This document shows, in pieces, positions 4,211-54,163 of a stretch of DNA of 64,000 bases. Position numbers and translations under genes: made by a program. The notes below the pieces were generated by a model. That model was given only the letters and a program-made list of their open reading frames with translations, was not told the DNA's origin and did no database searches. This DNA comes from Rhodanobacteraceae bacterium. GTDB lineage: Bacteria > Pseudomonadota > Gammaproteobacteria > Xanthomonadales > SZUA-5. The stretch is taken from NCBI GenBank assembly GCA_016713135.1, contig JADJPR010000015.1:29080-93079 (forward strand). Direction: 5' to 3'. Numbering within the stretch: the first letter of the stretch is position 1; each line of letters starts with the position of its first letter.

Positions 4211-4415
4211 GGGTTGTGGGTTCTGGGTTGTGGGTTGTGGGCGGCAACAGCCCGGTGTGCTGAAGCGCTTGCGGGAGCGGCTTCAGCCACCATTTTTCGC
4301 GCTGAGCCGGGGAAAGATCGCCGACAGAGTCGGCTCCGACGGGCCACGGCGTGCGAGCTTCGCTGCCACAACCCACAACCCACAACCCACAACCCACAAC
4401 CAGAACCCACAACCC
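4211..4415. repeat. Family-A element A1: (GGGTTGT)n arm, REP-doublet core, (ACAACCC)n arm
   Basis: Left arm 4211-4241 gggttgtgggttctgggttgtgggttgtggg. Right arm 4366-4415 ccacaacccacaaccc... is its complement. Core contains gggagcggcttcagcc and gatcgccgacagagtcggctcc. Starts 1 nt after the prpF-like stop. Confidence 0.9.
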
Positions 4416-5209: not shown

Positions 5210-5362
5210 GTTGTGGGTTGTGGGTTCTGGGTTGTGGGCAGCAAGAGCGCGGGCGGCGGGGGCTAGTCGCCGGCTGCTTCTGCGCACGAATTCACGCAGT
5301 GGCTCCGGACTGGCCGCACCCAGCTTTGGCTGCCCACAACCCAGAACCCACAACCCACAACC
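5210..5362. repeat. Family-A element A2
   Basis: 5210-5238 gttgtgggttgtgggttctgggttgtggg is the perfect 29-nt reverse complement of 5334-5362. Diverged 94-nt core. Confidence 0.9.
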
Positions 5363-7347: not shown

Positions 7348-7525
7348 GGTTGTGGGTTGTGGGTTGTGGGCCGCGAGCTCGCACACCGCAGCCATGTGGG
7401 AGCCGACTCTGTCCGCGATCTCTTCCTGGCGGCCGCCGACAAGAGATCGCGGCTGAAGCCGCTCCCACCGGCTATCGGCACCCAGGCTCTTGCCGCCCAC
7501 AACCCACAACCCAGAACCCAGAACC
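7348..7525. repeat. Family-A element A3 (core inverted relative to A1)
   Basis: Left arm 7348-7370 ggttgtgggttgtgggttgtggg. Right arm 7496-7525 cccacaacccacaacccagaacccagaacc. The reverse complement of the core aligns with the A1 core (gtgggagcggcttcagccgcgatc ... gacagagtcggctcccac). Confidence 0.9.
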
Positions 7526-7593: not shown

Positions 7594-10500
7594 TCAACCA
7601 TCCGTGCGCAGGCTGACGGTGTCGACCCGGAAGGTCGTCGCCAGCGAGCTGTCGGTGGAGCCGACGAAGCGGATGCGCACGTTCTTGCCCTTGTGCGCCA
7701 CGACGTTGTAGCTGCGCTGCACGTAGGTGGACGCGTTGGTGGTCTTGTTGACGTTCGACAGGGTCACCAGGGTCTGCAGCACCGCGTTCGTGCTCGCATC
7801 GACCAGCTGCACGGTCAGCTTGTCATAAGCCGTCGTGGTGGTGGTCTCGCTGGTCACGATCGAGGTGTAGAAGCTCAGCGTGGCCTGGGTCGCGCCGGCC
7901 GGGATCAGCGTGGGCTGGCTCTGCACCGTCTGCGAGCTGGTGGTCGCATTGACGCCGAGGTAGGCATAGCTGCCACCGGTGTTGGCATTGGTCTGGCCGG
8001 CCAGCAGGGTGTTGAACGAGGTGCCGGTCGAGGCCGAGCGGGCCCAGGAACCATCCGGCGCCGAGTTGGTGCTGGTGGTGATCGTGTCGAAGTTACCGTT
8101 GGCCAGCTTCTCGGTGACCGTGCCGCCGCCACCGCCGCCGGTGGTCCAGGAGGCCGTCACGTTGAAGGTCAGGGTGCCGGTGGCGTAGCCGTAGACGCGG
8201 ACGTAGTAGGTGCCGACGGTCGGCGTGGCGAAGGTGCAGGTCTCATTGCCCGAGCCAGTGTACGGACGGCAGTCGTATACCGTCAGCGTGGCCTGGGCGC
8301 CGGCCTTCACATACAGGTCGACGTCGCCCGACGCACCGCTGGTGGCGATGGTCAGGTTGGACGCACCGGACGGGATCGCCACGGTGTAGTCCTTCCAGCT
8401 GCTGTTGGCACTGGTGGAGTTGGTGGAACCCGCGGAAGCCACGCCGTTGCTCAGCGCGGTGGCGCCGCCGGTGGTCGCCGTGCCAGTGAAGTTCTGGCCG
8501 GTGCTGTTGGCGCTGGAGATCGTCACCGAACGGTTGGCCGGGCTGAAGGTGTAACCCGACAGCGACGGGGTGACGGTGTAGCTGCCATTGGCCAGGCCGG
8601 AGATGGTGTAGGCGCCGGTGCTGCTGGTGGTCGCGCTGGCCGAGCCGGTGCTGACGGTGACGCCCGAGATGCCGGTGCCGCCGCTGGTGGTCACGGAGCC
8701 GGAGATGCTGTAGGTCGTGGTCGTCGCGGTGCCGGTGAAGTTCTGGCCGGTGACGTTGCTGCTGCCGATGGTCACGGCGCGGTTGACCGGGCTGAAGGTG
8801 TAGCCCGAACGGGTCGGCGTGATCGTGTAGCTGCCGGAGGCCAGGTTGGCCAGGGTGTAGTTGCCGCTCGAATCGGTGGTGGTGGAGACCGAGCCGGTGC
8901 TCACGGTGACGCTGCCGATGCCGACGCCGGTGCTGGTGGTGACCTGGCCGGAGATCGAGTAGGTGGTCACGGTGCCGCCGCAGTTGCTGAACTTGAAGTC
9001 GCGGGCGCGGGTGGACCAGCTGCCACTCGGGCGGTACATGCCGATGGTCCAGAAGGTGCAGTCGTCCACCGGATCGACCACCGTCTGGTGGTAGTCGCCC
9101 CAGCGGCCGGAGGTCTCGGCGGCGGCGCCGGCGGCGATCACGTTCTCACCCTGGGTCATCACGCCCAGCGCGTCGGTGACCAGGCGGCCGGTGTACTGCA
9201 GCGAGGCATAGGTGGTCGGCGTGGTGGTGCGGCTGACGTTGTAGCTCATGCCGATGTTGCCCATCTTGTCGGTCGCCGCGGCGCCGAGCAGGTGATGGGT
9301 GCTGCTGTCGCCCGGGCTGAAGGTGCCTTCCTGGTGCAGCGTCCAGTTGCCGCCGCCGGTGCGGCGCAGTTCGAACCAGCGCACGCCGGAGTCGACCACG
9401 GTGCCGCTGCGCGCGGTGTTCTGGTTGGTCGCGAAGGTGCCCACGATGGTCTCGTAGGAGCCCATGTTGCGGTAGTTCATCAGGTTCAGGATGACTTCGC
9501 GGATCGGGTCGAGGCGCGAGGTCGAACCCGGCTGCGGCACGGTGTCGAACGAGGAGTAGTCGCGGAACCAGCTGTTGAACTCGGTGATCTGGATGCGCGG
9601 CAGGGTGGTGATGCTGCTGCTCGACGGCGTGGTCCAGTTGAAGTTGAGCTGGTATAGGTCGATGAAGTCGGCGGTGGTGTTGGCGCCGGTGCCCGCATGG
9701 GCTTCGTCATCGTTGTGGCGGGCCAGGATCGCACCCGAGCCGGCCGGCGGGGCCGTGGTGCCCATGAACGAGGCCGGGGTCAGCGCCTGGAAGCCATAGC
9801 CCGAGAGCTTGGCGACACTGGTGAAGCGCTGCGCGGCGCGCGCGGTGGCGCCATTCAGCATGTTTGCGCGGTCGAAGGCATAGACCTTGGCGCCGCTGCC
9901 AGATTCGTTGGCGGTGCAGACGTAAGCGTCGCCCCACACACCGCAATGCGGGTAGTCGGGCAGCGCCGGGGTGGCGAAGCCGTAGAACCACCAGCCGCCG
10001 GAGACCGGGTCGGAGGTCTTCGACACGTAGGTGCACAGGCGGTTGGCGCTGGAGGTGCCGCCCATTTCGAGCATGAACCAGCGGTTCGCGAGGCGATCGA
10101 ACAGGATGATCGGATCCGACACCGAGGTGGCACAGGGATCGCCGGCCGGGGCCAGCGACTTGAAGGTGGTCGGGCCGGACACCAGTGTGCCGGACTTGTT
10201 GTACACCTTGAAGGTGGTGCCGGACGAGCTGTTGATGCCGTACAGGATGTGGTTCGTGCCGACTTCGATCACCGGGTCGCCAGGGCTGACGCCGGTATTG
10301 CCGTTGTCGATGTTGATGCGAGCCGGGCCGCGGAACGACACGTCGCCGGCGCTGCGCGAGCTGCTGTCGAACAGCGCCTGCAACTCGCCCAGGCGGTCGG
10401 GGGCGGTAGTCCAGTCGGCCGGCGCATGCGGCGCGCGGGCGTCCAGCGGGTGATACACGCGGCGCTGGGCTTCGCGAATGGGCTGGCCGGGTTGCCACAT

Positions 10501-10659
10501 CGCGGCCGTCGGCAGGTTGCGCAGATCGACGTCGATGCCAACGGGCGTCACCGGTTCCCCAACCGACACGCCGTTGCCGTTGCTGAGCCCCTGGGCGACC
10601 GCGCCGGTGCCGACCGCAGTCAGCGCCAGTGCTGCCACCAAAGCTAGATGCTTCTTCAT
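7594..10659 (-). CDS. Large secreted multidomain protein (unknown N-terminal domain, 3 CarboxypepD_reg/Ig-like repeats, PPC domain, C-terminal beta-sandwich)
   Basis: Signal peptide MKKHLALVAALALTAVGTGAVAQG. Three ~85-aa repeats (YSISG.VTTS.G.GI.GVTVSTGS...SGYTFSP.NR.VTI.S.N.TGQNFTGTA). DVDLYVKAG...YYVRVYGY resembles a pre-peptidase C-terminal domain. Confidence 0.75.
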   Translation of the reverse strand: MKKHLALVAALALTAVGTGAVAQGLSNGNGVSVGEPVTPVGIDVDLRNLPTAAMWQPGQPIREAQRRVYHPLDARAPHAPADWTTAPDRLGELQALFDSSSRSAGDVSFRGPARINIDNGNTGVSPGDPVIEVGTNHILYGINSSSGTTFKVYNKSGTLVSGPTTFKSLAPAGDPCATSVSDPIILFDRLANRWFMLEMGGTSSANRLCTYVSKTSDPVSGGWWFYGFATPALPDYPHCGVWGDAYVCTANESGSGAKVYAFDRANMLNGATARAAQRFTSVAKLSGYGFQALTPASFMGTTAPPAGSGAILARHNDDEAHAGTGANTTADFIDLYQLNFNWTTPSSSSITTLPRIQITEFNSWFRDYSSFDTVPQPGSTSRLDPIREVILNLMNYRNMGSYETIVGTFATNQNTARSGTVVDSGVRWFELRRTGGGNWTLHQEGTFSPGDSSTHHLLGAAATDKMGNIGMSYNVSRTTTPTTYASLQYTGRLVTDALGVMTQGENVIAAGAAAETSGRWGDYHQTVVDPVDDCTFWTIGMYRPSGSWSTRARDFKFSNCGGTVTTYSISGQVTTSTGVGIGSVTVSTGSVSTTTDSSGNYTLANLASGSYTITPTRSGYTFSPVNRAVTIGSSNVTGQNFTGTATTTTYSISGSVTTSGGTGISGVTVSTGSASATTSSTGAYTISGLANGSYTVTPSLSGYTFSPANRSVTISSANSTGQNFTGTATTGGATALSNGVASAGSTNSTSANSSWKDYTVAIPSGASNLTIATSGASGDVDLYVKAGAQATLTVYDCRPYTGSGNETCTFATPTVGTYYVRVYGYATGTLTFNVTASWTTGGGGGGTVTEKLANGNFDTITTSTNSAPDGSWARSASTGTSFNTLLAGQTNANTGGSYAYLGVNATTSSQTVQSQPTLIPAGATQATLSFYTSIVTSETTTTTAYDKLTVQLVDASTNAVLQTLVTLSNVNKTTNASTYVQRSYNVVAHKGKNVRIRFVGSTDSSLATTFRVDTVSLRTDG

Positions 10660-10781: not shown

Positions 10782-11618
10782 TCACGCGGGCCGGAACTCC
10801 AACCGTCGCAGCAGGCGAATCTCCCCTCGCTTGCTGACGACCTCGATGTCCGATTCCGGCTTGCCGATCTCGGCAGTGGCCGACTTGTTCGGTTCCTGTC
10901 CCGGTTGCGGGACGATCTCGACACTGAATTCGGTGGCAAACACGCCGGAGCTGGCCATCGCCAGTCGCGCATTCAAGCCATCGACGATGCCGAGCAGGAT
11001 GTTGCCGGTGCTGGTGGCGATGCGCTGGCGGCTGCCCATCGGTGCCGGATCCAGTTGGCCCTCGACCATGCCGGCGCCGGTCTCGACATCGACCAGGCCA
11101 GCAATGCCACGGAAATTGATGCTGCCCTCGGCGCTGCGCGCCTTGAGGTTGCCCTGCAGACCACGGACGTCGATCAGTCCACGTTCAGTCACGATTTCGA
11201 GGTCATGTCCCTGCGGTACGTAGGCGGTGATTTCGACGCGCTGGCCGGGCGCCAACACCACGCCTTCCGGCAGGCGCGCGACCAGGGAGTAGGCAGCGCC
11301 GCTGCTCCCGGTCACGCCGATCTTGTGCAGCGCGGCGCCGTTCTGCGCAACGGTGCGCCACTCGAGCTTGTGCTCGTAGCCGCCGAAGCGGACGCGGACA
11401 TCGCCGTAGGGATTGTCGATCCGGATCGGCTGCTTCGTGGGCAGGTCTTGCAGGTTGGTGGTGCGCTCGATGTCGCCTTCGGTCAGCACCGGTGCGGCGG
11501 CATCGGCCGGGGCATCGGCCACCGGCGCGACCGGCTGCTGTGCGCAGCCCGCCAGTGCCAGCAACAATCCCCCCAGGATCCCCTTGCGCACGCCCCGAAC
11601 TCCCCAGCATGTCTGCAT
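10782..11618 (-). CDS. Lipoprotein, DUF4097-like putative beta-helical adhesin
   Basis: ATG 11618 gives MQTCWGVRGVRKGILGGLLLALAGC (lipobox). Repetitive short beta-strand pattern. Family assignment is tentative. Confidence 0.6.
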   Translation of the reverse strand: MQTCWGVRGVRKGILGGLLLALAGCAQQPVAPVADAPADAAAPVLTEGDIERTTNLQDLPTKQPIRIDNPYGDVRVRFGGYEHKLEWRTVAQNGAALHKIGVTGSSGAAYSLVARLPEGVVLAPGQRVEITAYVPQGHDLEIVTERGLIDVRGLQGNLKARSAEGSINFRGIAGLVDVETGAGMVEGQLDPAPMGSRQRIATSTGNILLGIVDGLNARLAMASSGVFATEFSVEIVPQPGQEPNKSATAEIGKPESDIEVVSKRGEIRLLRRLEFRPA

Positions 11619-11907
11619 GTCGCTCGTCTCGCCGTGGTCCGGGTGACGCCCGATCATCGGCGAGGCAAACGAAGCCCGTCTGACTCGTGAAATGAAAGTC
11701 CGGCGATCGCTCCCCAGCCCGCATTGCTCCCCAGCAATGCTGGCGTCGACCGCCGATGAACTCCCCCTGAAGCGGATCCTGCCTCCCCCCGGAGGTGGAC
11801 CGGCGCGCACTGTATTCAGGCTTGATTCAAGTGTCAATGGGTGGCGTAAAGCGACGTGATGCGTCACTCGTGATGTTGCAATGCGTGACAGGGGTGTGAA
11901 GGGTGGG

Positions 11908-12058
11908 GCCACGAGGTCAAGAGGGCACGAGGGCACGAGGGCACGCCAGGACCTCATCCCAGGCCCGGCCTCGTCTCACCGCGATAGCGGTTGAAAAACA
12001 AGCACAATCAGTTACTTGCAAAGGTCCAGACGAGAGCGAGCCTTTTCGTGCCCTCGCG
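11908..12058. repeat. Family-D element D1: (GAGGGCAC)n arm, conserved ~100-nt core, CGTGCCCTCGCG arm
   Basis: gagggcacgagggcacgagggcacg at 11921-11945. The core is ~75% identical to the D2 core, including agcacaatcagttacttgcaa. The right arm ends at 12058 and directly abuts the yceH stop codon (12059-12061). Confidence 0.9.
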
Positions 12059-12727
12059 TCAGACCTCAGCCCCGAGGTCCCGCAGCGCCGCGGTCAGTCG
12101 CGCTACCTGGGCTTCCAGCGCGCTGACGCGGTCGCCCAATGCGCTGCCGCCGGAATGGCCTTCGCTGTCGTCGCCGCGGCGCATCTCGGCGGCGGCGCGC
12201 TCGGCGTGCTCACTGCCGCACAGCAAGTGCATGTAGCGCTCGACGCTTTGCCCCGGCTGCAACGGCAGTCGAGTTGCGAGGGCCGGCTGGCGGCGGGTCA
12301 GGCGGTCCAGGGTGTCCTTGACCTGTTCGATGTCGCTGAACTTCGCCAGGCGTTCGGCCCGGGTCATCAGTTCGCTCGGTGTCTGCGGCCCGCGCAGCAG
12401 CAACAGGCAGAGGATTGCGCGCTGCGGTGGCGTCAGGGTGTAGATCTCCTCGAAGCGGTGCTCGTAGCGCAGGGCGCGCGGCGAGTGCTGGACCCGCACC
12501 AGTTTCTTGTCTTCCAGTGTGCGCAGCGCATGCCCGACGGCGCCAAGTTCCAGTTCCATCACCGGCTCGCGCGCGGTCTTCTGGTTGGCCGCGACCATCG
12601 CCGCGTTGGCGGTCAACGGGTATTGGTCCGGCGTGGTCAGCGCCTTTTCGACCAGGCACCCGAGCACGCGTGCCTCGATGTCGGAGAGTTGCGGAATCGT
12701 CGGGGCGGTGGGTGCGGAGTCGGTCAT
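12059..12727 (-). CDS. yceH: YceH/DUF480 family protein
   Basis: LSDIEARVLGCLVEKALTTPDQYPLTANA...NQKT.REPVM and the ERYMHL motif align along the full length with E. coli YceH. ATG at 12727. Confidence 0.9.
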   Translation of the reverse strand: MTDSAPTAPTIPQLSDIEARVLGCLVEKALTTPDQYPLTANAAMVAANQKTAREPVMELELGAVGHALRTLEDKKLVRVQHSPRALRYEHRFEEIYTLTPPQRAILCLLLLRGPQTPSELMTRAERLAKFSDIEQVKDTLDRLTRRQPALATRLPLQPGQSVERYMHLLCGSEHAERAAAEMRRGDDSEGHSGGSALGDRVSALEAQVARLTAALRDLGAEV

Positions 12728-14429: not shown

Positions 14430-14707
14430 GCGGGGCAGGGGGCAAGGGGGCAGGGGACCTGTTTTGCGGCTTTGCGGATGCAATGAGGTGAGACGCGGCA
14501 CTGGGCCTTGAGTCCAGAGCGGCTACGCGGCCAGGTCACTGCGGCAAGCCATTCCCCTTGCCACGTGACCCTTGACCCGCCTTTCATCCCCGCGCAGACC
14601 CGGTTCAGACATGTCCCGCTAGCGTCCGCGGGGCCTGGAATCCAAACCGCGGCGCGGCCAGGCCAGCGCGGCAAGCCTTTTCCCCTGCCCCCTGACCCTT
14701 GCCCCGC
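14430..14707. repeat. Family-B element B1: (GGGGCA)n arm, core, C-rich arm, with duplicated right half
   Basis: Left arm 14430-14457 gcggggcagggggcaagggggcagggga. Complementary arms at 14553-14580 and 14681-14707. The 56-nt segments 14526-14581 and 14653-14708 are direct repeats. Confidence 0.88.
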
Positions 14708-19418: not shown

Positions 19419-21560
19419 TCACTCGGCGTCGGGCCCGACCCACATCAAATCCACCTCCACCTTGTCGGTTTGCGCGATCACCGCGGGCGGGCCGTCGCGG
19501 CTGACGTCAATGGCGCGGCTGAGGGCGCCGGGGTGCGGCCAAGCCGTGCTGCCATGTGTCCCATCCGTCAGCGCATGGCGGTCGATGGTGGTGCCGGGGT
19601 TGTCGGCGGCGACGTAGAACACCGCGCCCTCGGCGACAGCCCAGTTCCGCCGGTCTCCCGGCGCCAGTTCGATCGGCAACGGCGAGCACTCCTGGCCGTG
19701 GCAGCGATGCAGGCGCGCATCGCCGACCTCGACCAGGAACAGGCCCTGCGGGTCCACCTGGTAGTGCTCGACGGAATCGTGCATGCGCTCGGGTGGCGCT
19801 TTGCCGTCCAGACGGAAACGCCACAGCGTGGCCAGGCGCTCGTCGCCGACACGGCACCAGGCATGCATGCCATCGGGGTCGAACTGTGCATCGTGCGCGC
19901 CCGCAGGCGCGTGCATGAGCGCTTGTGGCGCGTCGGCGCCGATGACGAACCGCCACAGATCGACGCCGGCCGGCGCATAGCGCGTCAGCAGCAGTTCGCG
20001 GCCATCCGGCGACCACGCCGGCTGCGCCCAGCGCATGGTCGGATCGAGCGGCAGCCGCGATTCGTTGCGGCTGGCCAGGTCCAGCAGGTAGATCGACTCG
20101 GCGCCATCGCGATTGGATTGGTAGACCAGTCGTTGGCCATCCGGTGCGAGGCGCGGGTAGGCATCGTAGCGGCTGGACGCGGTCAGGCGTTCGGGCACGG
20201 CGCCGGGCGCGAACCACCAGAGGTTGGCATCGTAGCCGGCCTGCTCGTAGACCAGCGTGCCATCGGCGGCGACATCCGGATAGCGTGCGCCGCGCGCGCC
20301 GAGTAATTCGGACTTGCCGCTGACCGGATCGATGGCGACCAGTGCGCGGAAGCCCAGGCCGTCGGTGGCGGCGAGGATCCGGCCATCGGTGAGAAAATCG
20401 GCGCCATACAGCATGCTCGCCGGGAAATCGATGCGCCGGTCGTTCCCGGCAGCCTCATGCAGGCGCAGCGAACGGTCGCCTTCGACGCCGCGCGTGTAGA
20501 CGATCCGGCCGGCGCCGTCGATGCGCGGATGGGTGTCGTTGCCATGGCCCTGCGGCGGCGCAGTCAGCGATTCGCGTCGACCGTCGGCCAGGCGCAGGCG
20601 CGCAAGGCCAGCGCCATGCCCCGGCACTTCCGGCGGCGCGGTGTAGGCCACCTCGTCGCCTGCCCAGTCGGGGCAGCTCAGCACGCCGGGCGCACAGTCG
20701 GCGACGCGCACCGGCGCGCCACCCAGCACTGGCGCGCGCAACAGTTCGCAGGCACCTGCGCGGTGACGGGTCCACAGCACCTCGCGGTCGTCCGGGCTGA
20801 ACACCGGGCAGAGGTCGTTCGCGCTTCCGTCGGTCAGCGTGCGGGCGATGCGCCCATCGCGCGAGCGCAGGCGGATGCTCGCGGTCTCGCTGTCGGGTGC
20901 GACCTCGCTGTAGACCACCAGATCGCCTGCATGCGCCAGCCGCGGGGCCAGTTCCCAGCCGGGATCGCTGGTCAGCGGCTGGGCGTTGAGCAGCCGCGCG
21001 CGCCAGTCCTCGGCCGCATCAATTGGCGCTTGCGGGCGCAGCAACCAGGCCAGCGCCAGCGCCGCGAGCCCGAAGGCCGCCAGTCCCGGTGCCAGGTGCG
21101 GCGGGCGGCGGACAGGCACTCCCGCCGACGGTGCAGCCGGTGGCGCAACCACGATGGGCGTGTCATCAGCCTCCGGGACTGCAGTCTCTGCGACCGGCGC
21201 AGACGCCTCCAGCCAGTTCACCGCCGCCAGCAGCCGATAGCCGACCTTCGGAATCGTTTCCAGGTAGCGCGGCGCGCGCGCATCGTCGCCGAGCGCCTGG
21301 CGCAGATCGGCGATGGTGCGCGAGAGCACCTCGTCGTTGACCATCCGACGCGACCAGGCCGATGCCAGCAGGGTCTCGCGGCTGACCGTGCGCCCGCCCG
21401 CGAGTGCCAGCAGGCGCAACAGCTGGATCAGGCGCGGCTGCACCCGCTGGCGTTCCTCGCCACGCTGGAATTCATTGAGTTCGGGCACGACCCGCCACTC
21501 GCCGACTTCAAAGGGTCTCAGGCGATCCGCGTCTGCTTCGTTTGGGTCGTGCGAAATCAA
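19419..21560 (-). CDS. CadC/OmpR-type winged-helix regulator fused through one TM segment to a TolB-like (PD40) beta-propeller
   Basis: N-terminus PRLIQLLRLLALAGGRTVSRETLLASAW...ETIPKVGYRL (Trans_reg_C). TM segment LAAFGLAALALAWLL. Repeated P.FSPDG/P.WSPDG-type propeller blades. Start inferred at TTG 21560; the rest of the 1239-aa ORF is antisense shadow of the NHL gene. Confidence 0.75.
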   Translation of the reverse strand: MISHDPNEADADRLRPFEVGEWRVVPELNEFQRGEERQRVQPRLIQLLRLLALAGGRTVSRETLLASAWSRRMVNDEVLSRTIADLRQALGDDARAPRYLETIPKVGYRLLAAVNWLEASAPVAETAVPEADDTPIVVAPPAAPSAGVPVRRPPHLAPGLAAFGLAALALAWLLRPQAPIDAAEDWRARLLNAQPLTSDPGWELAPRLAHAGDLVVYSEVAPDSETASIRLRSRDGRIARTLTDGSANDLCPVFSPDDREVLWTRHRAGACELLRAPVLGGAPVRVADCAPGVLSCPDWAGDEVAYTAPPEVPGHGAGLARLRLADGRRESLTAPPQGHGNDTHPRIDGAGRIVYTRGVEGDRSLRLHEAAGNDRRIDFPASMLYGADFLTDGRILAATDGLGFRALVAIDPVSGKSELLGARGARYPDVAADGTLVYEQAGYDANLWWFAPGAVPERLTASSRYDAYPRLAPDGQRLVYQSNRDGAESIYLLDLASRNESRLPLDPTMRWAQPAWSPDGRELLLTRYAPAGVDLWRFVIGADAPQALMHAPAGAHDAQFDPDGMHAWCRVGDERLATLWRFRLDGKAPPERMHDSVEHYQVDPQGLFLVEVGDARLHRCHGQECSPLPIELAPGDRRNWAVAEGAVFYVAADNPGTTIDRHALTDGTHGSTAWPHPGALSRAIDVSRDGPPAVIAQTDKVEVDLMWVGPDAE

Positions 21561-21671
21561 TGATTTGTGCGAGTTCAGTGAAAACGGAGAAGTTCCGGAG
21601 GACAAGTTCAGGCGGGCCCGCGGGCCGCCGGGAAGGATGGTGCCACCCCAACTGGCAACGAGGAACCCTGC

Positions 21672-26563: not shown

Positions 26564-26843
26564 CTAAACCTCCAAATGGAGCGGGATTTGCGACTGCACG
26601 GGGCTCACGGGCCGCCGAGTCTGTCGCGCTTTGAGGGGCGCGCGGATTCTAAGGGAAGCTTCCGGCCAGCGTCACCCGGATCGTTGCGCGCGGGCGATGT
26701 CGTTCAGGTCCGCCTCGCAGGCTTGCTCGCCCGGGTGACCGGATGGCGAGTTCTGCACAATCGTGGCGAGGCTCGCCACCGGGGGTTCGTGGCGGGTACG
26801 GATCGTCGGCAGTGACATCAATCAAATCAATTACTTAGACCGT

Positions 26844-26859
26844 TGGCACGGGACTTGGA
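26844..26859 (+). promoter_or_regulatory. Sigma-54 (-24/-12) promoter of pspA
   Basis: TGGCAC-gggac-TTGGA at 26844-26859, about 49 nt upstream of the pspA ATG. Same form as the E. coli pspA promoter (TGGCAC-N5-TTGTA). Confidence 0.7.
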
Positions 26860-26907
26860 ATGGGTCAATCACCCGCAAGGGGCATGAATCCACGAGGAGA
26901 TAGCAAC

Positions 26908-33069: not shown

Positions 33070-33206
33070 GCGGGGCAGGGGGCAGGGGGCAAGGGGAATT
33101 GCCAAGGCTTCGGACATGCCCCGGATTCATGGCCGAGCGCCTCCATTCGCCCCAGTGGGGTTCGAGCCTTGAGGCAGCGGCCCCTGCCCCTTGCCCCTTG
33201 CCCCGC
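33070..33206. repeat. Family-B element B2
   Basis: Left arm gcggggcagggggcagggggcaagggga (33070-33097). Right arm cccctgccccttgccccttgccccgc (33181-33206). Fills the lysC/lysA to PP-loop intergenic gap. Confidence 0.9.
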
Positions 33207-33224: not shown

Positions 33225-34565
33225 ATGACCCAACCCCGCCCCACCGCCACGACCTTCCGCCTGACCGACTGCCGTTACGCCGACGGAGAGGTGTTGCTCG
33301 GCTATGCCTTCGACGATGGCGCCACGATGTTCGAGCGCATCCGCTTCCCTGGCGCGCCGGCGGCGGTGCCGGCGGGGCGCGAGGCGGCGTTCGCCCGGGC
33401 GCTGGCACTGCTGCACGGGATCGCGGGCGTCAGCTACTACAAGGCACTGGTCCCGGAGCGTATCGAAGTGGCCGGTGAGGCTTTCGATCCGGCGCTGGCG
33501 ACGCTGCTGGACGAGGTCTGGCTGCATGGCCTTGGCGAGTTCGCGCATCACAACGGCCTGGACTTGCGCGGGCGGATCCGCTTCCCGCATGGCGCGGAAC
33601 CAGCACCCGCGGCAGCTGCGCTTGGCCTGCCGCGGCGCGCGCTGGTGCCGATCGGTGGCGGCAAGGATTCGCTGGTCAGCATCGAGACGCTCAAGCGCGC
33701 GGGCGATCCGGTCGCGGTGGTGTGGATCGGCCGCAGCGAACTGATCCGCGCCTGCGCCCAGGCCACCGGGCAGCCGCTGCTGAACATCGAGCGCGAGATC
33801 GCGCCGGAACTGTTCGAACTCAATCGCCGTGGCGCCTGGAACGGCCACATCCCGGTCACCGCGATCAACTCGGCGATCCTGACCCTGGCGGCGCTGCTCT
33901 ACGGCTACGACGAGATCGTGTTTTCCAACGAGGCTTCGGCGAGCGTCGGCAACCTCGTCAGCAACGAACTCGACATCAACCACCAGTGGAGCAAGGGCCT
34001 GCGCTTCGAGACCCTGTTCGCCGGCTACCTGCGCGACGCGGTAGCTGCCGACCTGCGCTACTACTCGCTGCTGCGGCCGTTCTCCGAACTGGCGGTGACC
34101 GAGCGTTTCGCCCGGTTGACCCGCTATCACGGGCTGTTTTCCAGCTGCAACCGCAATTTCCGCATCCTCGGCGACAAGCCCTCCTCGCGCTGGTGCGGCG
34201 AGTGTCCGAAATGCCGTTTCGTGTTCCTCGCGCTGGCGCCGTTCATGAGCAAGCCCGCGCTGCTGACGATCTTCGGCCGCAACCTGCTGGACGAGCCGGA
34301 GCAAGTGGCGGGTTTCGATGCGCTGCTCGAATTCGGCGCGGTCAAACCCTTCGAATGCGTGGGCGAGGGCCGCGAATCCCGCGCCGCGCTGCTCGCGCTG
34401 AGCCAGCGCGCCGACTGGCGCGAGGACGCTCTGGTGCGGCGCTTCGTCGACGAGGTGCTGCCGGCGATCGATCCCTCCGGGCTCGAGCTGCCGCCACTGC
34501 TGCGGCCTTCCGGAGAGCACCACGTTCCGGCGAGGCTGTGGGCGGCGCTGGGCCTGGAATCCTGA
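33225..34565 (+). CDS. PP-loop (GGGKDS) ATP-pyrophosphatase-superfamily protein of unknown specificity; possible MurL-like enzyme
   Basis: ATG 33225 (MTQPRPTATTF). ALVPIGGGKDSLVS resembles the SGGKDS PP-loop. CGECPKC motif near the C-terminus. 446 aa. Confidence 0.6.
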   Translation: MTQPRPTATTFRLTDCRYADGEVLLGYAFDDGATMFERIRFPGAPAAVPAGREAAFARALALLHGIAGVSYYKALVPERIEVAGEAFDPALATLLDEVWLHGLGEFAHHNGLDLRGRIRFPHGAEPAPAAAALGLPRRALVPIGGGKDSLVSIETLKRAGDPVAVVWIGRSELIRACAQATGQPLLNIEREIAPELFELNRRGAWNGHIPVTAINSAILTLAALLYGYDEIVFSNEASASVGNLVSNELDINHQWSKGLRFETLFAGYLRDAVAADLRYYSLLRPFSELAVTERFARLTRYHGLFSSCNRNFRILGDKPSSRWCGECPKCRFVFLALAPFMSKPALLTIFGRNLLDEPEQVAGFDALLEFGAVKPFECVGEGRESRAALLALSQRADWREDALVRRFVDEVLPAIDPSGLELPPLLRPSGEHHVPARLWAALGLES

Positions 34566-34568
34566 GCC

Positions 34569-34796
34569 GGTTGTCGGTAGGCGGTTGTGTCGGCAGCAGC
34601 CGATGTGCCCTGAGCCCGTGGGAGCGGCTTCAGCCGCGATCTTTTCCCGGCGGCTGCTGGAGAAGATCGCCGACAGAGTCGGCTCCCACAGGTGTGTCGG
34701 TGTTCGAGCCTTGCTGCCCAGAACCCAGAACCCACAACCCACAACCCACAACCCACAACCCACAACCCACAACCCACAACCCACAACCCACAACCC
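34569..34796. repeat. Family-A element A4 with asymmetric arm expansion
   Basis: Degenerate left arm ggttgtcggtaggcggttgtgtcgg. REP doublet 34618-34689 (gtgggagcggcttcagccgcgatc ... gatcgccgacagagtcggctcccac). Right arm 34717-34796 is about 11 heptamers of CCCA(C/G)AA. Confidence 0.9.
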
Positions 34797-38890: not shown

Positions 38891-38916
38891 GTGCCCTCTC
38901 GTGCAGGGGGCTGTCT

Positions 38917-39067
38917 GTGGGAGCGGCTTCAGCCGCGATCTTTTCCCTGCGGCGGCTGGAAAGGTCGCCGACAGAGTCGGCTCCCACAGGCTGGCGGTGT
39001 GCAGGCTCTGCTGCCCACAACCCACAACCCACAACCCACAACCCGCCCACAAACCCACAACCCGCCC
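38917..39067. repeat. Family-A element A5 (REP doublet plus right arm only)
   Basis: gtgggagcggcttcagccgcgatc...gtcgccgacagagtcggctcccac, then cccacaacccacaacccacaacccacaacccgcccacaaacccacaaccc (39014-39067). The left heptamer arm is missing next to the MITE-like element. Confidence 0.88.
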
Positions 39068-39574: not shown

Positions 39575-39613
39575 GTGGTGAAAAGTGAAGAGTGAAAAGT
39601 GAAAAGTGAAACG
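39575..39613. repeat. Family-F half element F2: (GTGAAAA)n arm
   Basis: gtggtgaaaagtgaagagtgaaaagtgaaaagtgaaacg begins 2 nt after the stop codon. No complementary arm follows; instead it runs into a terminator hairpin. Confidence 0.8.
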
Positions 39614-49112: not shown

Positions 49113-49206
49113 GCGGGGCAGGGGGCAGGGGGCAGGAGACCGGGCTTCGCCGCATGGTTGAACCGTGCTGCGAGTTTCGTCCCTTGCCCCCTGACCCCTT
49201 CCCCGC
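49113..49206. repeat. Family-B element B3 (short core)
   Basis: Left arm gcggggcagggggcagggggcagga (49113-49137). Right arm tcccttgccccctgaccccttccccgc (49180-49206). Confidence 0.88.
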
Positions 49207-49242: not shown

Positions 49243-50631
49243 ATGTTGCCCGTCGTTGCACTGGTCGGCCGCCCGAATGTCGGCAAGTCCACCCTCTACA
49301 ACTCGCTGACCAAGAGCCGCGACGCTATCGTCTCGGACATGCCGGGCGTCACGCGCGACCGCCTGTTCGGCATCTGCCGCCGCGGCGAGCGGCCATTCAT
49401 GGTGGTCGATACCGCCGGCCTGACCGAGAACGAGGACGTCCTCGCGAAGGGCATGGCGGCGCAGTCCTGGCAGGCCATCGAAGAGTCCGACCTGGTCTGC
49501 CTGGTGGTCGACGCGCGCGATGGCATCAACCCGGATGACCTGGAGATTGCCCAGCGCATCCGTACCACTGGCCGGCCGATGCTGCTGGTGGTGAACAAGA
49601 TCGACGGCGTCAACGAAGACAATGTGCGCGCGGAATTCTCGCGCCTGGGGATTGCCGGCACGCTGCTGATCTCGGCGGCCCACAACCAGGGCATCGCCGA
49701 TTTCGTCGAGGAAGTGTTGACGCGCCTGCCGGCGGATTCGGTCGAGCCAGAGGCCGACGATGGTGTCATCCGCATCGCGATCATCGGCCGCCCGAATGTG
49801 GGCAAGTCGACCCTGGTCAACCGCCTGCTCGGCGAAGAACGGGTGCTGGCGATGGACCTGCCCGGCACCACCCGCGATGCGGTGCGTGTGCCGCTGGAGC
49901 GCGATGGGCGCAAGTACCGGCTGATCGACACCGCCGGCATCCGGCGCAAGGCGCGGGTGGGCGAGGGCGTCGAGAAGTTCAGCGTGATCAAGGCGCTGCA
50001 GGCGGCGGTCGAGGCGCATGTGGTGATTCTGATGCTGGATGCGCAGCAGGGCTTCGCCGATCAGGACGCACACCTGCTCGGCGAGATCGTCGAGGCTGGC
50101 CGCGGCCTGGTGCTGGCGATGAACAAGTGGGATGGCCTCTCCGTGCGCGAGCGCACCCAGGTGAATTCGCGCCTGGACTGGGGCTTGTCCTTCGTCAATT
50201 TCGCCAAGCGTCTGCCGATCTCCGCGCTGCACGGCTCCGGCCTCGGCGAACTGATGAAGGCAGTCAACCAGGCGCACAAGGCGGCGACCCGCGAGTTCTC
50301 CGCAAACGAACTGACCAAGGCGATCAACGAGGCCTTCGAGAAGCACCAGCCGCCGATGGTGCGCGGCCGCGTGGCGAAGATGCGCTACGCCCACCAGGGC
50401 GGCCGCAATCCGCCGCGCGTGATCATCCACGGCTCACGCCTGAAGGATTTGCCGGACGCCTACAAGCGCTACCTGGAAAACTCCCTGCGCGACAAGTTCC
50501 GCCTCACCGGCACCCCGCTCGCACTGGAATTCCGTGAAGGCGCCAACCCCTACGCCGACAAGAAGAACGTCCTCACCCCACGCCAGGTCGAGAAGCGCAA
50601 GCGGCTGATGCGGCATGTGAAGAAGGGGTAG
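49243..50631 (+). CDS. der: Ribosome-associated GTPase Der (EngA)
   Basis: Two G domains, each with GRPNVGKST, plus a KH-like C-terminus. Confidence 0.96.
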   Translation: MLPVVALVGRPNVGKSTLYNSLTKSRDAIVSDMPGVTRDRLFGICRRGERPFMVVDTAGLTENEDVLAKGMAAQSWQAIEESDLVCLVVDARDGINPDDLEIAQRIRTTGRPMLLVVNKIDGVNEDNVRAEFSRLGIAGTLLISAAHNQGIADFVEEVLTRLPADSVEPEADDGVIRIAIIGRPNVGKSTLVNRLLGEERVLAMDLPGTTRDAVRVPLERDGRKYRLIDTAGIRRKARVGEGVEKFSVIKALQAAVEAHVVILMLDAQQGFADQDAHLLGEIVEAGRGLVLAMNKWDGLSVRERTQVNSRLDWGLSFVNFAKRLPISALHGSGLGELMKAVNQAHKAATREFSANELTKAINEAFEKHQPPMVRGRVAKMRYAHQGGRNPPRVIIHGSRLKDLPDAYKRYLENSLRDKFRLTGTPLALEFREGANPYADKKNVLTPRQVEKRKRLMRHVKKG

Positions 50632-50825
50632 GGCGTCAGGAGGGCACGAGGGCACGCCAAGACCTTATCCCAGATCCAGCCTCGCACACTGCGGGAGTGG
50701 TTGGAAAGTCAGCACAATCAGTTACTTGCAATGGTTCCCGAGATCGCGAGCCTTTTCGGCCCTCGCGCCCTCGCGCCCTCGCGCCCTCGCGCCCTCGCGC
50801 CCTCGCGCCCTCGCGCCCTCGCGCC
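50631..50825. repeat. Family-D element D2: 2 GAGGGCAC units, conserved core, 8 CCCTCGCG units
   Basis: ggagggcacgagggcacg (50639-50656). Core 50657-50757 is homologous to D1. (ccctcgcg)x8 spans 50760-50825 and abuts the stop (50826-50828) of the convergent BNR gene. The left end touches the der stop. Confidence 0.92.
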
Positions 50826-54021: not shown

Positions 54022-54163
54022 GTCCGCAAAGGACGCAAAGGACGCGAAGGAAGCAAGTGCGAGATCAAGCAGAACGGCGAGTTGGTGCCGTGATGGCATT
54101 CCGGGGCTCATGCCCGACGCCAGGCAGTTGATTTTCTTTGCGTCCTTTGCGTCCTTTGCGGAC
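54022..54163. repeat. Element E1: (GCAAAGGAC)n arm, core, (GTCCTTTGC)n arm
   Basis: gtccgcaaaggacgcaaaggacgcgaaggaagcaa (54022-54056) against ttgattttctttgcgtcctttgcgtcctttgcggac (54128-54163). The outer 23 nt are perfectly complementary. Lies in a divergent promoter region. Confidence 0.9.

Follow-up and report, generated by a model that had tools for sequence, protein, structure and literature searches.

Which kind of element fills the space between the stop codons of der and of a convergent gene in a 64,000-nt stretch of DNA of an uncultured Rhodanobacteraceae/Lysobacterales bacterium (contig JADJPR010000015.1; the whole stretch is referred to below as the window), and what is the role of the AT-rich block in the middle of this element? 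The element, designated family D, is present in the window in two copies, D1 beside yceH and D2 beside der, each consisting of a non-coding core of ~103 bp that is flanked by runs of an 8-base unit in inverted orientation. A preliminary description of this DNA had proposed that the core is a protein- or RNA-binding site or contains an embedded small RNA. According to our analysis, family D is a fairly ordinary lineage-specific repeat and not a small-RNA gene, and we hold with moderate confidence that it is an intergenic cassette similar to BIME-1 (bacterial interspersed mosaic element) or to the Correia element, with a centrally placed predicted site for integration host factor (IHF).

Structure of the Repeat and the IHF Consensus in Its Core

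The cores of the two copies (103 nt in D1 and 102 nt in D2; Table 1) have the same orientation and are identical in 80 of 103 alignment columns, i.e., 78%, slightly more than the ~75% previously estimated. As had been described, they share the 3' end GCGAGCCTTTTCG and an exact 21-mer, AGCACAATCAGTTACTTGCAA, located on the plus strand in both copies; no third match occurs in the window even with 3 mismatches allowed, and shuffled sequences give 0. The GC content of the 21-mer is 0.38, while that of the cores is 0.54-0.56 and that of the window 0.68, and the 21-mer block is the most AT-rich portion of the element.

The 21-mer holds AATCAGTTACTTG, which agrees at every position with the 13-bp IHF consensus WATCARNNNNTTR as given in PMC9820253. 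The window contains 4 perfect sites of this kind against 0.39 expected, a number that no shuffle reached; two of the four lie in family D, which is the sole element family of the window with a perfect IHF site, and the probability that a shuffled core would hold one is 0.002-0.004. All six distinct core versions known to us (6/6), including a decayed one described below, retain the 13-mer unaltered. The predicted IHF site lends specific support to the earlier idea of a protein-binding site, the perfect consensus being rare in DNA of 68% GC; the second half of that idea, a small RNA, found no such support, as discussed further on.

The position of both copies relative to the genes is as it had been described. 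D2 occupies the entire gap from the der stop codon (50629-50631) to that of a convergent 1026-aa open reading frame (ORF; stop codon 50826-50828), which the final base of its right arm adjoins, and the right arm of D1, ending at 12058, adjoins the yceH stop codon (12059-12061). Pfam searches bore out the identity of Der (MMR_HSR1 and KH_dom-like) and of the gene next to D1 (DUF480/YceH), while the label "BNR" of the convergent gene is unconfirmed, as it gave no Pfam hit at E<=1e-3. The distance to the stop codon is 8 nt for der, 0 nt for the convergent ORF and yceH, and ~20 nt for M83, one of two copies found in a metagenome assembly (see below). The orientation relative to genes varies: the gene with the element on its 3' side is on the minus strand for D1 and on the plus strand for D2 and M83, and M81, the other metagenome copy, is located 5' of a divergent gene.

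Together with the inner ends (GCCAAGACC... and ...GAGCCTTTTCG), the arms form terminal inverted repeats. The arm units had been described as pairing with one A-C mismatch per unit. This is true of D2 in the window (GAGGGCAC vs GCCCTCGC) but is not a general feature of the family, as the right-arm unit of the sister strains and of the metagenome copies is GTGCCCTC, which complements the left-arm unit perfectly; the mismatch is a derived, strain-specific state. For a copy whose arms match, the fold is a perfect stem of 25 bp (z = -6.7), and D2 of the window, with its unequal arms, folds modestly better than shuffled sequences do (z = -2.2 to -2.7).

Taken as a whole, family D would be a non-coding, non-autonomous repeat cassette, of a class widespread in Xanthomonadales/Lysobacterales, with arms (GAGGGCAC)n and (GTGCCCTC)n around the ~103-bp core, in which the G-rich array and its reverse complement would allow either strand to fold into a long arm-arm stem. 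The AT-rich central block is most likely a binding site of IHF, a DNA-bending protein. If the core were bent by ~160 degrees at its middle, the inverted arms would be drawn together, which could favor either the extrusion of a hairpin or cruciform or the synapsis of the ends by the recombination machinery that spreads or exchanges the cassette. The arms are hypermutable by slippage, in copy number as well as in unit sequence, and the whole cassette is gained, lost, or swapped at intergenic sites close to stop codons as strains diverge.

Several observations touch the IHF consensus and the 21-mer without belonging to family D itself. The third IHF consensus of the window, AATCAATTACTTA (26825-26837), is intergenic (26815-26860) and lies directly upstream of TTGGCACGGGACTTGG, a sequence similar to a sigma-54 -24/-12 element, though its -12 part reads TTGG, not TTGC; the fourth is located at 21555-21567. 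The minus strand of the 21-mer (12003-12009 and 50713-50719) holds one copy of TAACTGA, a heptamer reported from marine Beggiatoaceae as an abundant intergenic direct repeat (PMC4679880); being a single copy here, the match is probably a coincidence.

Polymorphism in Sister Strains

At the der site, sister strains L111-L114 carry D2 with the right-arm unit GTGCCCTC, and the third codon positions of their der genes are diverged by 16-18%. The D2 core of these strains differs at 4 of 103 positions, one of the changes being A to G in the last base of the 21-mer. L127 and related contigs have D2 within flanks that are 97-99% identical, with arms of 3-4 units; the core of L127 has undergone 5 changes and a 19-nt deletion that removed AGCCTTTTCG, and its A-rich tract is altered. 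In L128 and L130, which encode the same Der protein and have both flanks ~99% identical to the window, D2 is replaced by an unrelated 234-nt element of the GGGGCAG type. In the more distant L116-125, the der gap holds a 35-nt GC-rich remnant. The arm arrays also differ between strains in their unit (GTGCCCTC vs GCGCCCTC), and the GTGCCCTC arrays comprise from 3 to at least 9 copies.

At the yceH site, the locus L089 has the same YceH protein and an identical D1, and other strains with the same YceH have 5 to at least 10 arm units against one in the window, their contigs breaking there. A strain with a 95% identical YceH possesses a mixture of 8-mer and 7-mer units (GAGGGCAC and GGGGCAC); in a strain with a 90% identical YceH, GGGGCAC/GTGCCCC arms surround a different, 85-nt core, and in strains with an 87% identical YceH degenerate arms surround a 28-nt hairpin. 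A third site of this kind was found in L111 (331-480), where D-type arms (GAGGGCAC/GTGCCCTC) and inner ends enclose a different core of 72 nt that begins, like the D core, with GCCAAGAG; the corresponding site of the window (39578-39611) contains a (GTGAAAA)n array.

The presence, absence, and replacement of cassettes are thus polymorphic between strains, and the arms are unstable in copy number and unit sequence. As judged from these comparisons, arms mutate by slippage and re-homogenization, cores and arms behave as modules, and cassettes are exchanged at the pace at which strains diverge. The core, in turn, had been thought to be conserved beyond the needs of a hairpin loop. This conservation turned out to be weaker than it appeared: since 19 nt of the common 3' end are missing from the L127-type D2 and its A-rich tract is altered, the core as a whole is not strongly constrained.

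We also considered purifying selection on the whole core of D2, as 4 differences in 103 positions against the 16-18% divergence of der third positions correspond to P ~1e-4. This signal is not robust, because der is a recombination mosaic (in a comparison of L111 with L113, the divergence of third positions is 3% and then 17%) and because the L127 core has accumulated its 5 changes and 19-nt deletion within flanks 97-99% identical. Arguments from neutral rates are in general of limited value here, since the population is a fine-scale recombination mosaic.

Recombination is also visible upstream of der. Between 45200 and 48200, the identity of the window to L111 in 200-nt bins falls from 94-98% to 71-89%, with two isolated bins at 92-93%, and is back to 94% in der.

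Next to D1, a strong sigma-70-like promoter (TTGACA-17-TACAGT, 11809-11837) is located on the minus strand ~70 nt past the element. After the promoter comes a non-coding stretch rich in GC and in hairpins (~11450-11808), which, unlike the element beside it, is kept in every sister strain, including those at 87% YceH identity, and which had no Rfam match at E<=1. This stretch may represent a leader or riboswitch-like region, missing from the annotation, that serves the minus-strand genes downstream.

Distribution

Family D is restricted to a narrow lineage. An exact 19-mer had zero matches in 185,579 GTDB species-representative genomes, the closest of which are metagenome-assembled genomes (MAGs) of Lysobacterales/Rhodanobacteraceae with a Der identity of 77-91%. 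It was found in two GC-rich contigs, L081 and L083, of the metagenome assembly WBZL01 (copies M81 and M83), in which perfectly complementary arms (GAGGGCAC/GTGCCCTC) are flanked by genes unrelated to those of the window and the contigs stop inside the arms. The known loci therefore number four, the window and WBZL01 having two each. According to the preliminary description, occurrence of the 21-mer at just the two loci of the window, together with no transcript and no conservation in relatives, would have pointed to a recent local duplication; at least two further loci exist in another assembly. Two other matches of the 19-mer, in DNA of 46-47% GC, were dismissed as chance ones, and so was a single 17-mer match in viral contigs, located within a phage gene.

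A search of 1.7 Mb of related loci with the core profile (nhmmer) and blastn gave nothing beyond the orthologous D1 and D2 and L081/L083, the core had no blastn match in plasmids, and family D is absent downstream of der in the relatives L001, L002, and L007. No autonomous partner element with D ends turned up among the loci and plasmids searched. Most D-bearing short-read contigs stop within an arm array (contig ends of L086-L099, L111-L115, L081, and L083). Since such arrays break short-read assemblies, MAGs of this group should systematically under-report elements of this kind.

What Counts against the Proposed IHF-Bearing Cassette, and the Alternative Explanations

A number of observations weigh against the IHF-bearing cassette, and they concern both the IHF site and the mobility. 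The case for IHF binding at family D, which we infer, is the consensus match itself, and many IHF consensus matches are unbound. Some strong IHF sites draw in part on an A-rich tract upstream, and in family D that tract is not conserved (GAAAAAC, GGAAAG, GGACTG). Retention of the motif in M81 and M83 is uninformative, because both copies were found via the 19-mer; in the unbiased D2 orthologues, 7-8 mutational events per 103 nt would place ~1 in the 13-mer, and the 0 seen is not a significant departure. As to mobility, neither a target-site duplication (TSD) nor a clean insertion boundary is present at the junctions of D1, D2, M81, and M83; in the comparison with the unoccupied allele of the der gap, 35 nt are replaced without a clean insertion, and the replacement of D by the GGGGCAG (B-type) element takes in the last few codons of the neighboring gene. 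In view of these junctions and of the codons included, the polymorphism of the der gap could be explained by homologous allelic exchange rather than by transposition. Finally, no transposase gene and no gene of a RAYT (REP-associated tyrosine transposase) could be tied to family D within the 64 kb of genome.

According to one competitor of the proposed cassette, a repeat spread recently and its copies, namely D1, D2, and those of the metagenome, are now simply drifting apart; the 21-mer would be a stretch that happens to be still unmutated, its likeness to the IHF consensus would be coincidental, and the function, if any, would be at most that of a hairpin. A run of at least 21 identities in a 103-nt pair of 72-78% identity has a chance probability of 0.02-0.09, and for this reason the invariance of the 21-mer between D1 and D2 is by itself just marginally significant, i.e., suggestive. 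The loss of the shared 3' end in L127, the accumulation of its other core changes at about the local neutral rate, the complete turnover of neighboring cassette families between strains, and the lack of covariation fit such a neutral history as well. It requires, however, a double coincidence, since the longest identical run would also have to be the sole perfect IHF consensus among the element cores (P ~0.003 per core); furthermore, this run is the most AT-rich portion of the element in DNA of 68% GC, and it persists in the otherwise decaying version of L127. We therefore consider a purely neutral relic unlikely, although worth keeping in mind.

The embedded small RNA of the preliminary description found no support. 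Rfam searches (gathering thresholds for the whole window, and E<=10 scans of both copies) returned only noise matches to eukaryotic families; scans revealed no sigma-70 promoter or intrinsic terminator within or beside D1 and D2 (0 terminator sites in either region), and no T-tract follows either arm of either copy. RNAalifold, applied to five versions, gave, for each strand, a covariation term that is positive, i.e., penalizing, and a single compensatory pair. The -35-like TTGAAA pointed out earlier does exist in D1, but its reading as a promoter element fails: it is confined to D1 (TTGGAA, TTGGAC, or TCGGAA in the other copies), has no -10 partner, and the scans were negative. A sigma-54-like reading of GCAC...TTGC was likewise discarded upon sequence inspection, as its spacing is off by 5 nt. 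One reading frame (...AQSVTC...) is open in all copies, yet indels of 1 nt and 19 nt and changes of 8 nt in the arm units shift it between orthologues, and it has no conserved start, so that a protein-coding role was rejected; among 8000 candidates scored when the concatenated six-frame translations of four cores were compared with a protein database, none had E<=10.

The element might nevertheless act at the RNA level as part of the 3' untranslated region of der, yceH, or the convergent gene, with the stem serving as a stabilizer, a processing site, or a terminator-like barrier, or the whole as a REP-like (repetitive extragenic palindromic) modulator of translation termination 0-8 nt from the stop codons, and with the 21-mer as an exposed loop for an RNA chaperone or target. 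In E. coli, a REP within ~15 nt of the stop codon reportedly lowers translation. Arms adjoin stop codons in D1, D2, and M83, most of the 21-mer is unpaired in the consensus fold of the plus strand, and a short GC-rich hairpin in the der gap of sister strains means that structure at this place is seemingly tolerated or wanted; in addition, the repeat sequences of Xanthomonas are mostly transcribed (PMC4692102). Against this stand the above-mentioned lack of a promoter, of a U-tract terminator, and of an Rfam family, the positive covariation term on both strands, and the circumstance that the strand that would be transcribed varies among D1, D2, M83, and M81. The unequal arms (2 vs 8 units in D2; 3-4 vs 1 in D1) also imply a stem that is often short. 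We find a role at the RNA level improbable.

Least of all does the evidence speak for arms that are functional and a core that is a passenger, the arrays of G3 tracts forming G-quadruplexes (G4) and acting as contingency loci or as modulators of transcription and replication. From sequence alone, the right arm of D2 has G4 potential (G3N5 repeats, at least 4 tracts). Although (GGGAATC)n arrays of Xanthomonas form G4 in vitro, preferably with 4 units (PMC4692102), the right arm of D2 has 8 G3 tracts on the minus strand, and arms of hypervariable length pair with different cores, this explanation is very unlikely, as many arms have fewer than 4 units (2 in the left arm of D2, 1 in the right arm of D1), as the same 103-nt core accompanies the arms at four or more unrelated loci in two assemblies and is hence part of the repeated unit, and as the IHF consensus would be left unexplained.

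Comparison with Known Repeats

The closest counterparts of family D within the order are the GGGAATC/GGGNATC repeats of Xanthomonas, intergenic arrays placed ~28 nt away from the ORF upstream; 70 of the 186 GGGAATC arrays stand in convergent pairs, and they form G4 structures when studied in vitro (Rehm, 2015; PMC4692102). Like family D, they consist of short G3 units in variable numbers (2 to >20), stand near the stop codon of the upstream gene, and include convergent arrays, G-rich on the plus and then on the minus strand, which are capable of forming a stem-loop (PMC4692102). The unit is different, GGGAATC in Xanthomonas versus the 8-mer GAGGGCAC (and the 7-mer GGGGCAC of sister strains) in family D; apart from this GGGNATC unit, family D has everything that characterizes the inverted class of simple sequence repeats (SSRs) of Xanthomonadales, i.e., the array, the convergent partner, and the position close to a stop codon. 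Rehm (2015) treats the arrays as SSRs, without a description of cores between paired arrays (PMC4692102). The sites of the Xanthomonas repeats are reportedly stable in position between species (PMC4692102), whereas the D cassette is replaced between near-identical strains.

For the cassette as a whole, the likeness to BIME-1 and Correia elements, which we drew as an analogy, is one of organization: family D has neither REP units nor a structure of terminal inverted repeats (TIRs) plus TSD. In BIME-1, an IHF site is located between two REPs, palindromes with a GT(A/G)G head (PMC2817692). The BIME-1/RIP elements of E. coli resemble family D in having inverted structure-forming modules, a spacer with an IHF consensus, and an intergenic position, often 3' of genes, and in being supposedly non-autonomous mobile DNA. 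Their modules, however, are single REP palindromes recognized by RAYT transposases and not tandem arrays of 7-8-nt units; there is no sequence similarity between the two, and inspection of either strand of the D core and arms revealed no GTAG- or GTGG-headed palindrome. The same difference separates family D from REPINs, REP doublets mobilized by RAYT, with which it has in common an intergenic, lineage-specific, hairpin-forming doublet: the D core is devoid of REP units and no RAYT is linked to it, and it is in family A of the window that similar arms enclose a REPIN-like pair (GTGGGAGCGGCTTCAGCCGCGAT with its inverted counterpart).

The Correia elements of Neisseria (CREE/NEMIS, 155-bp form) are non-coding, intergenic, and ~100-155 bp long, have inverted ends and a central IHF consensus, and show filled and empty sites between strains, all of which likens them to family D; their transcribed hairpin affects neighboring mRNAs. 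The Correia IHF site binds IHF in vitro (PMC2229807). They differ from family D in having unique 26-bp TIRs, a duplicated TA target, and hundreds of copies per genome, and bear no sequence similarity to it, whereas family D has tandem-array ends, no detectable duplication, and 2 copies in 64 kb. If IHF does bind, family D would link the inverted G-rich arrays of Xanthomonadales with the IHF-carrying repeats of enterobacteria and Neisseria. The natural series of alleles of the der gap (D2, decayed D2, B-type element, remnant), available in near-identical strains from metagenomes of activated-sludge type, would also make it possible to follow the exchange of cassettes and any effect that they have on the 3' ends of der and other essential genes.

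Other Armed Elements of the Window

Tandem Repeats Finder and a scan for array pairs located at least 10 elements in the window in which a G-rich tandem array is followed by a core of 85-125 nt and a complementary C-rich array; they belong to several unit families (Table 1). In all 12 of the 12 pairs detected in the window and related loci, the G-rich array is the left arm. Related MAGs also carry armed elements, in two of them (L005 and L026) exactly downstream of der; the GGGATTG-type unit present in L026 has no counterpart in family D. A core from L100, considered as a relative of family D, contains CACAATCAAC in the opposite orientation and has no detectable homology to D, and it was rejected.

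Table 1. Coordinates of family D and of the other armed elements of the window.
Feature	Position	Strand	Remarks
D2 left junction spacer ggcgtcag, der stop to left arm	50632..50639	+	identical in every sister-strain D2 copy
D2 left arm, 2 units of GAGGGCAC, G-rich on +	50640..50655	+	3 units in strains L113, L127
D2 core, ~102-103 nt, GC 0.54	50656..50758	+	nhmmer with core profile E = 5e-32
D2 21-mer AGCACAATCAGTTACTTGCAA; IHF consensus AATCAGTTACTTG inside at 50716-50728	50711..50731	+	
D2 right arm, 8.4 units of GCCCTCGC, C-rich on +, G3-tract array on -	50759..50825	+	
D1 left arm: ~1.5 degenerate units, then three perfect GAGGGCAC units (11921-11944)	11910..11944	+	
D1 core, 103 nt, GC 0.56	11945..12047	+	identical in sister-strain locus L089
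D1 21-mer; IHF consensus inside at 12006-12018	12001..12021	+	
D1 right arm: one GTGCCCTC unit + GCG, adjoins yceH (DUF480) stop 12059-12061	12048..12058	+	
Family A, GGGTTGT/CCCACAA arms	4211-4415, 5210-5362, 7348-7525; 34560-34796 (right arm 34717), 38900-39067 (right arm 39014)		
GGGGCAG/CCCCTGC arms (B-type)	14432-14705, 33072-33204, 49115-49206		also L083 1795-1995, L128 7949-8182
CGCAAAGGA/CTTTGCGTC arms	54025-54160		

The cores of family A contain GTGG-headed REP palindromes as inverted pairs (GTGGGAGCGGCTTCAGCCGCGAT ... GATCGCCGACAGAGTCGGCTCCCACAGG), i.e., a REPIN-like doublet nested between the array arms, and the arm unit of this family, GTGGGTT, has GTGGG in common with the REP head. 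The GGGGCAG element between a bamB-like gene and der (49115-49206) is just 72% identical to its L111 orthologue, and in L116 a CTTTGCGTC-armed element stands in its place; cassettes thus turn over upstream of der as well.

A motif at the right inner end, gcGAGCcTTt.. or caGGCTCTTGc, is common to different arm families, with its complement GCcAAGaGC beside the left arm (examples at 4350-4365, 34700-34716, 14670-14685, 12035-12048, and 50745-50758). In its strict form it is enriched, occurring at 4 of 11 right ends against a background of 2.7%, a figure to be read with the pattern having been defined post hoc. The motif may reflect a shared origin or a shared recognition site. It is conceivable, though doubtful, that the armed cassettes (A, B, D, and others) make up one unrecognized class of mobile or exchangeable intergenic modules; array ends and the inner motif (GCnAAGnGC ... 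GCnCTTnGC) would then be a recombination substrate, cassettes would take each other's place at given sites near stop codons in strains that are otherwise ~99% identical, and IHF would be a host factor of this exchange, brought in by the D core. Were this so, the "G4 repeats" of Xanthomonadales would be the ends of a cassette-exchange system and not passive SSRs.

Apart from the armed elements, a large minus-strand ORF (7594-10659) contains a 249-nt tandem duplication (8470-8967; 2 copies, 76% identical), which implies a repeated domain in the encoded protein.

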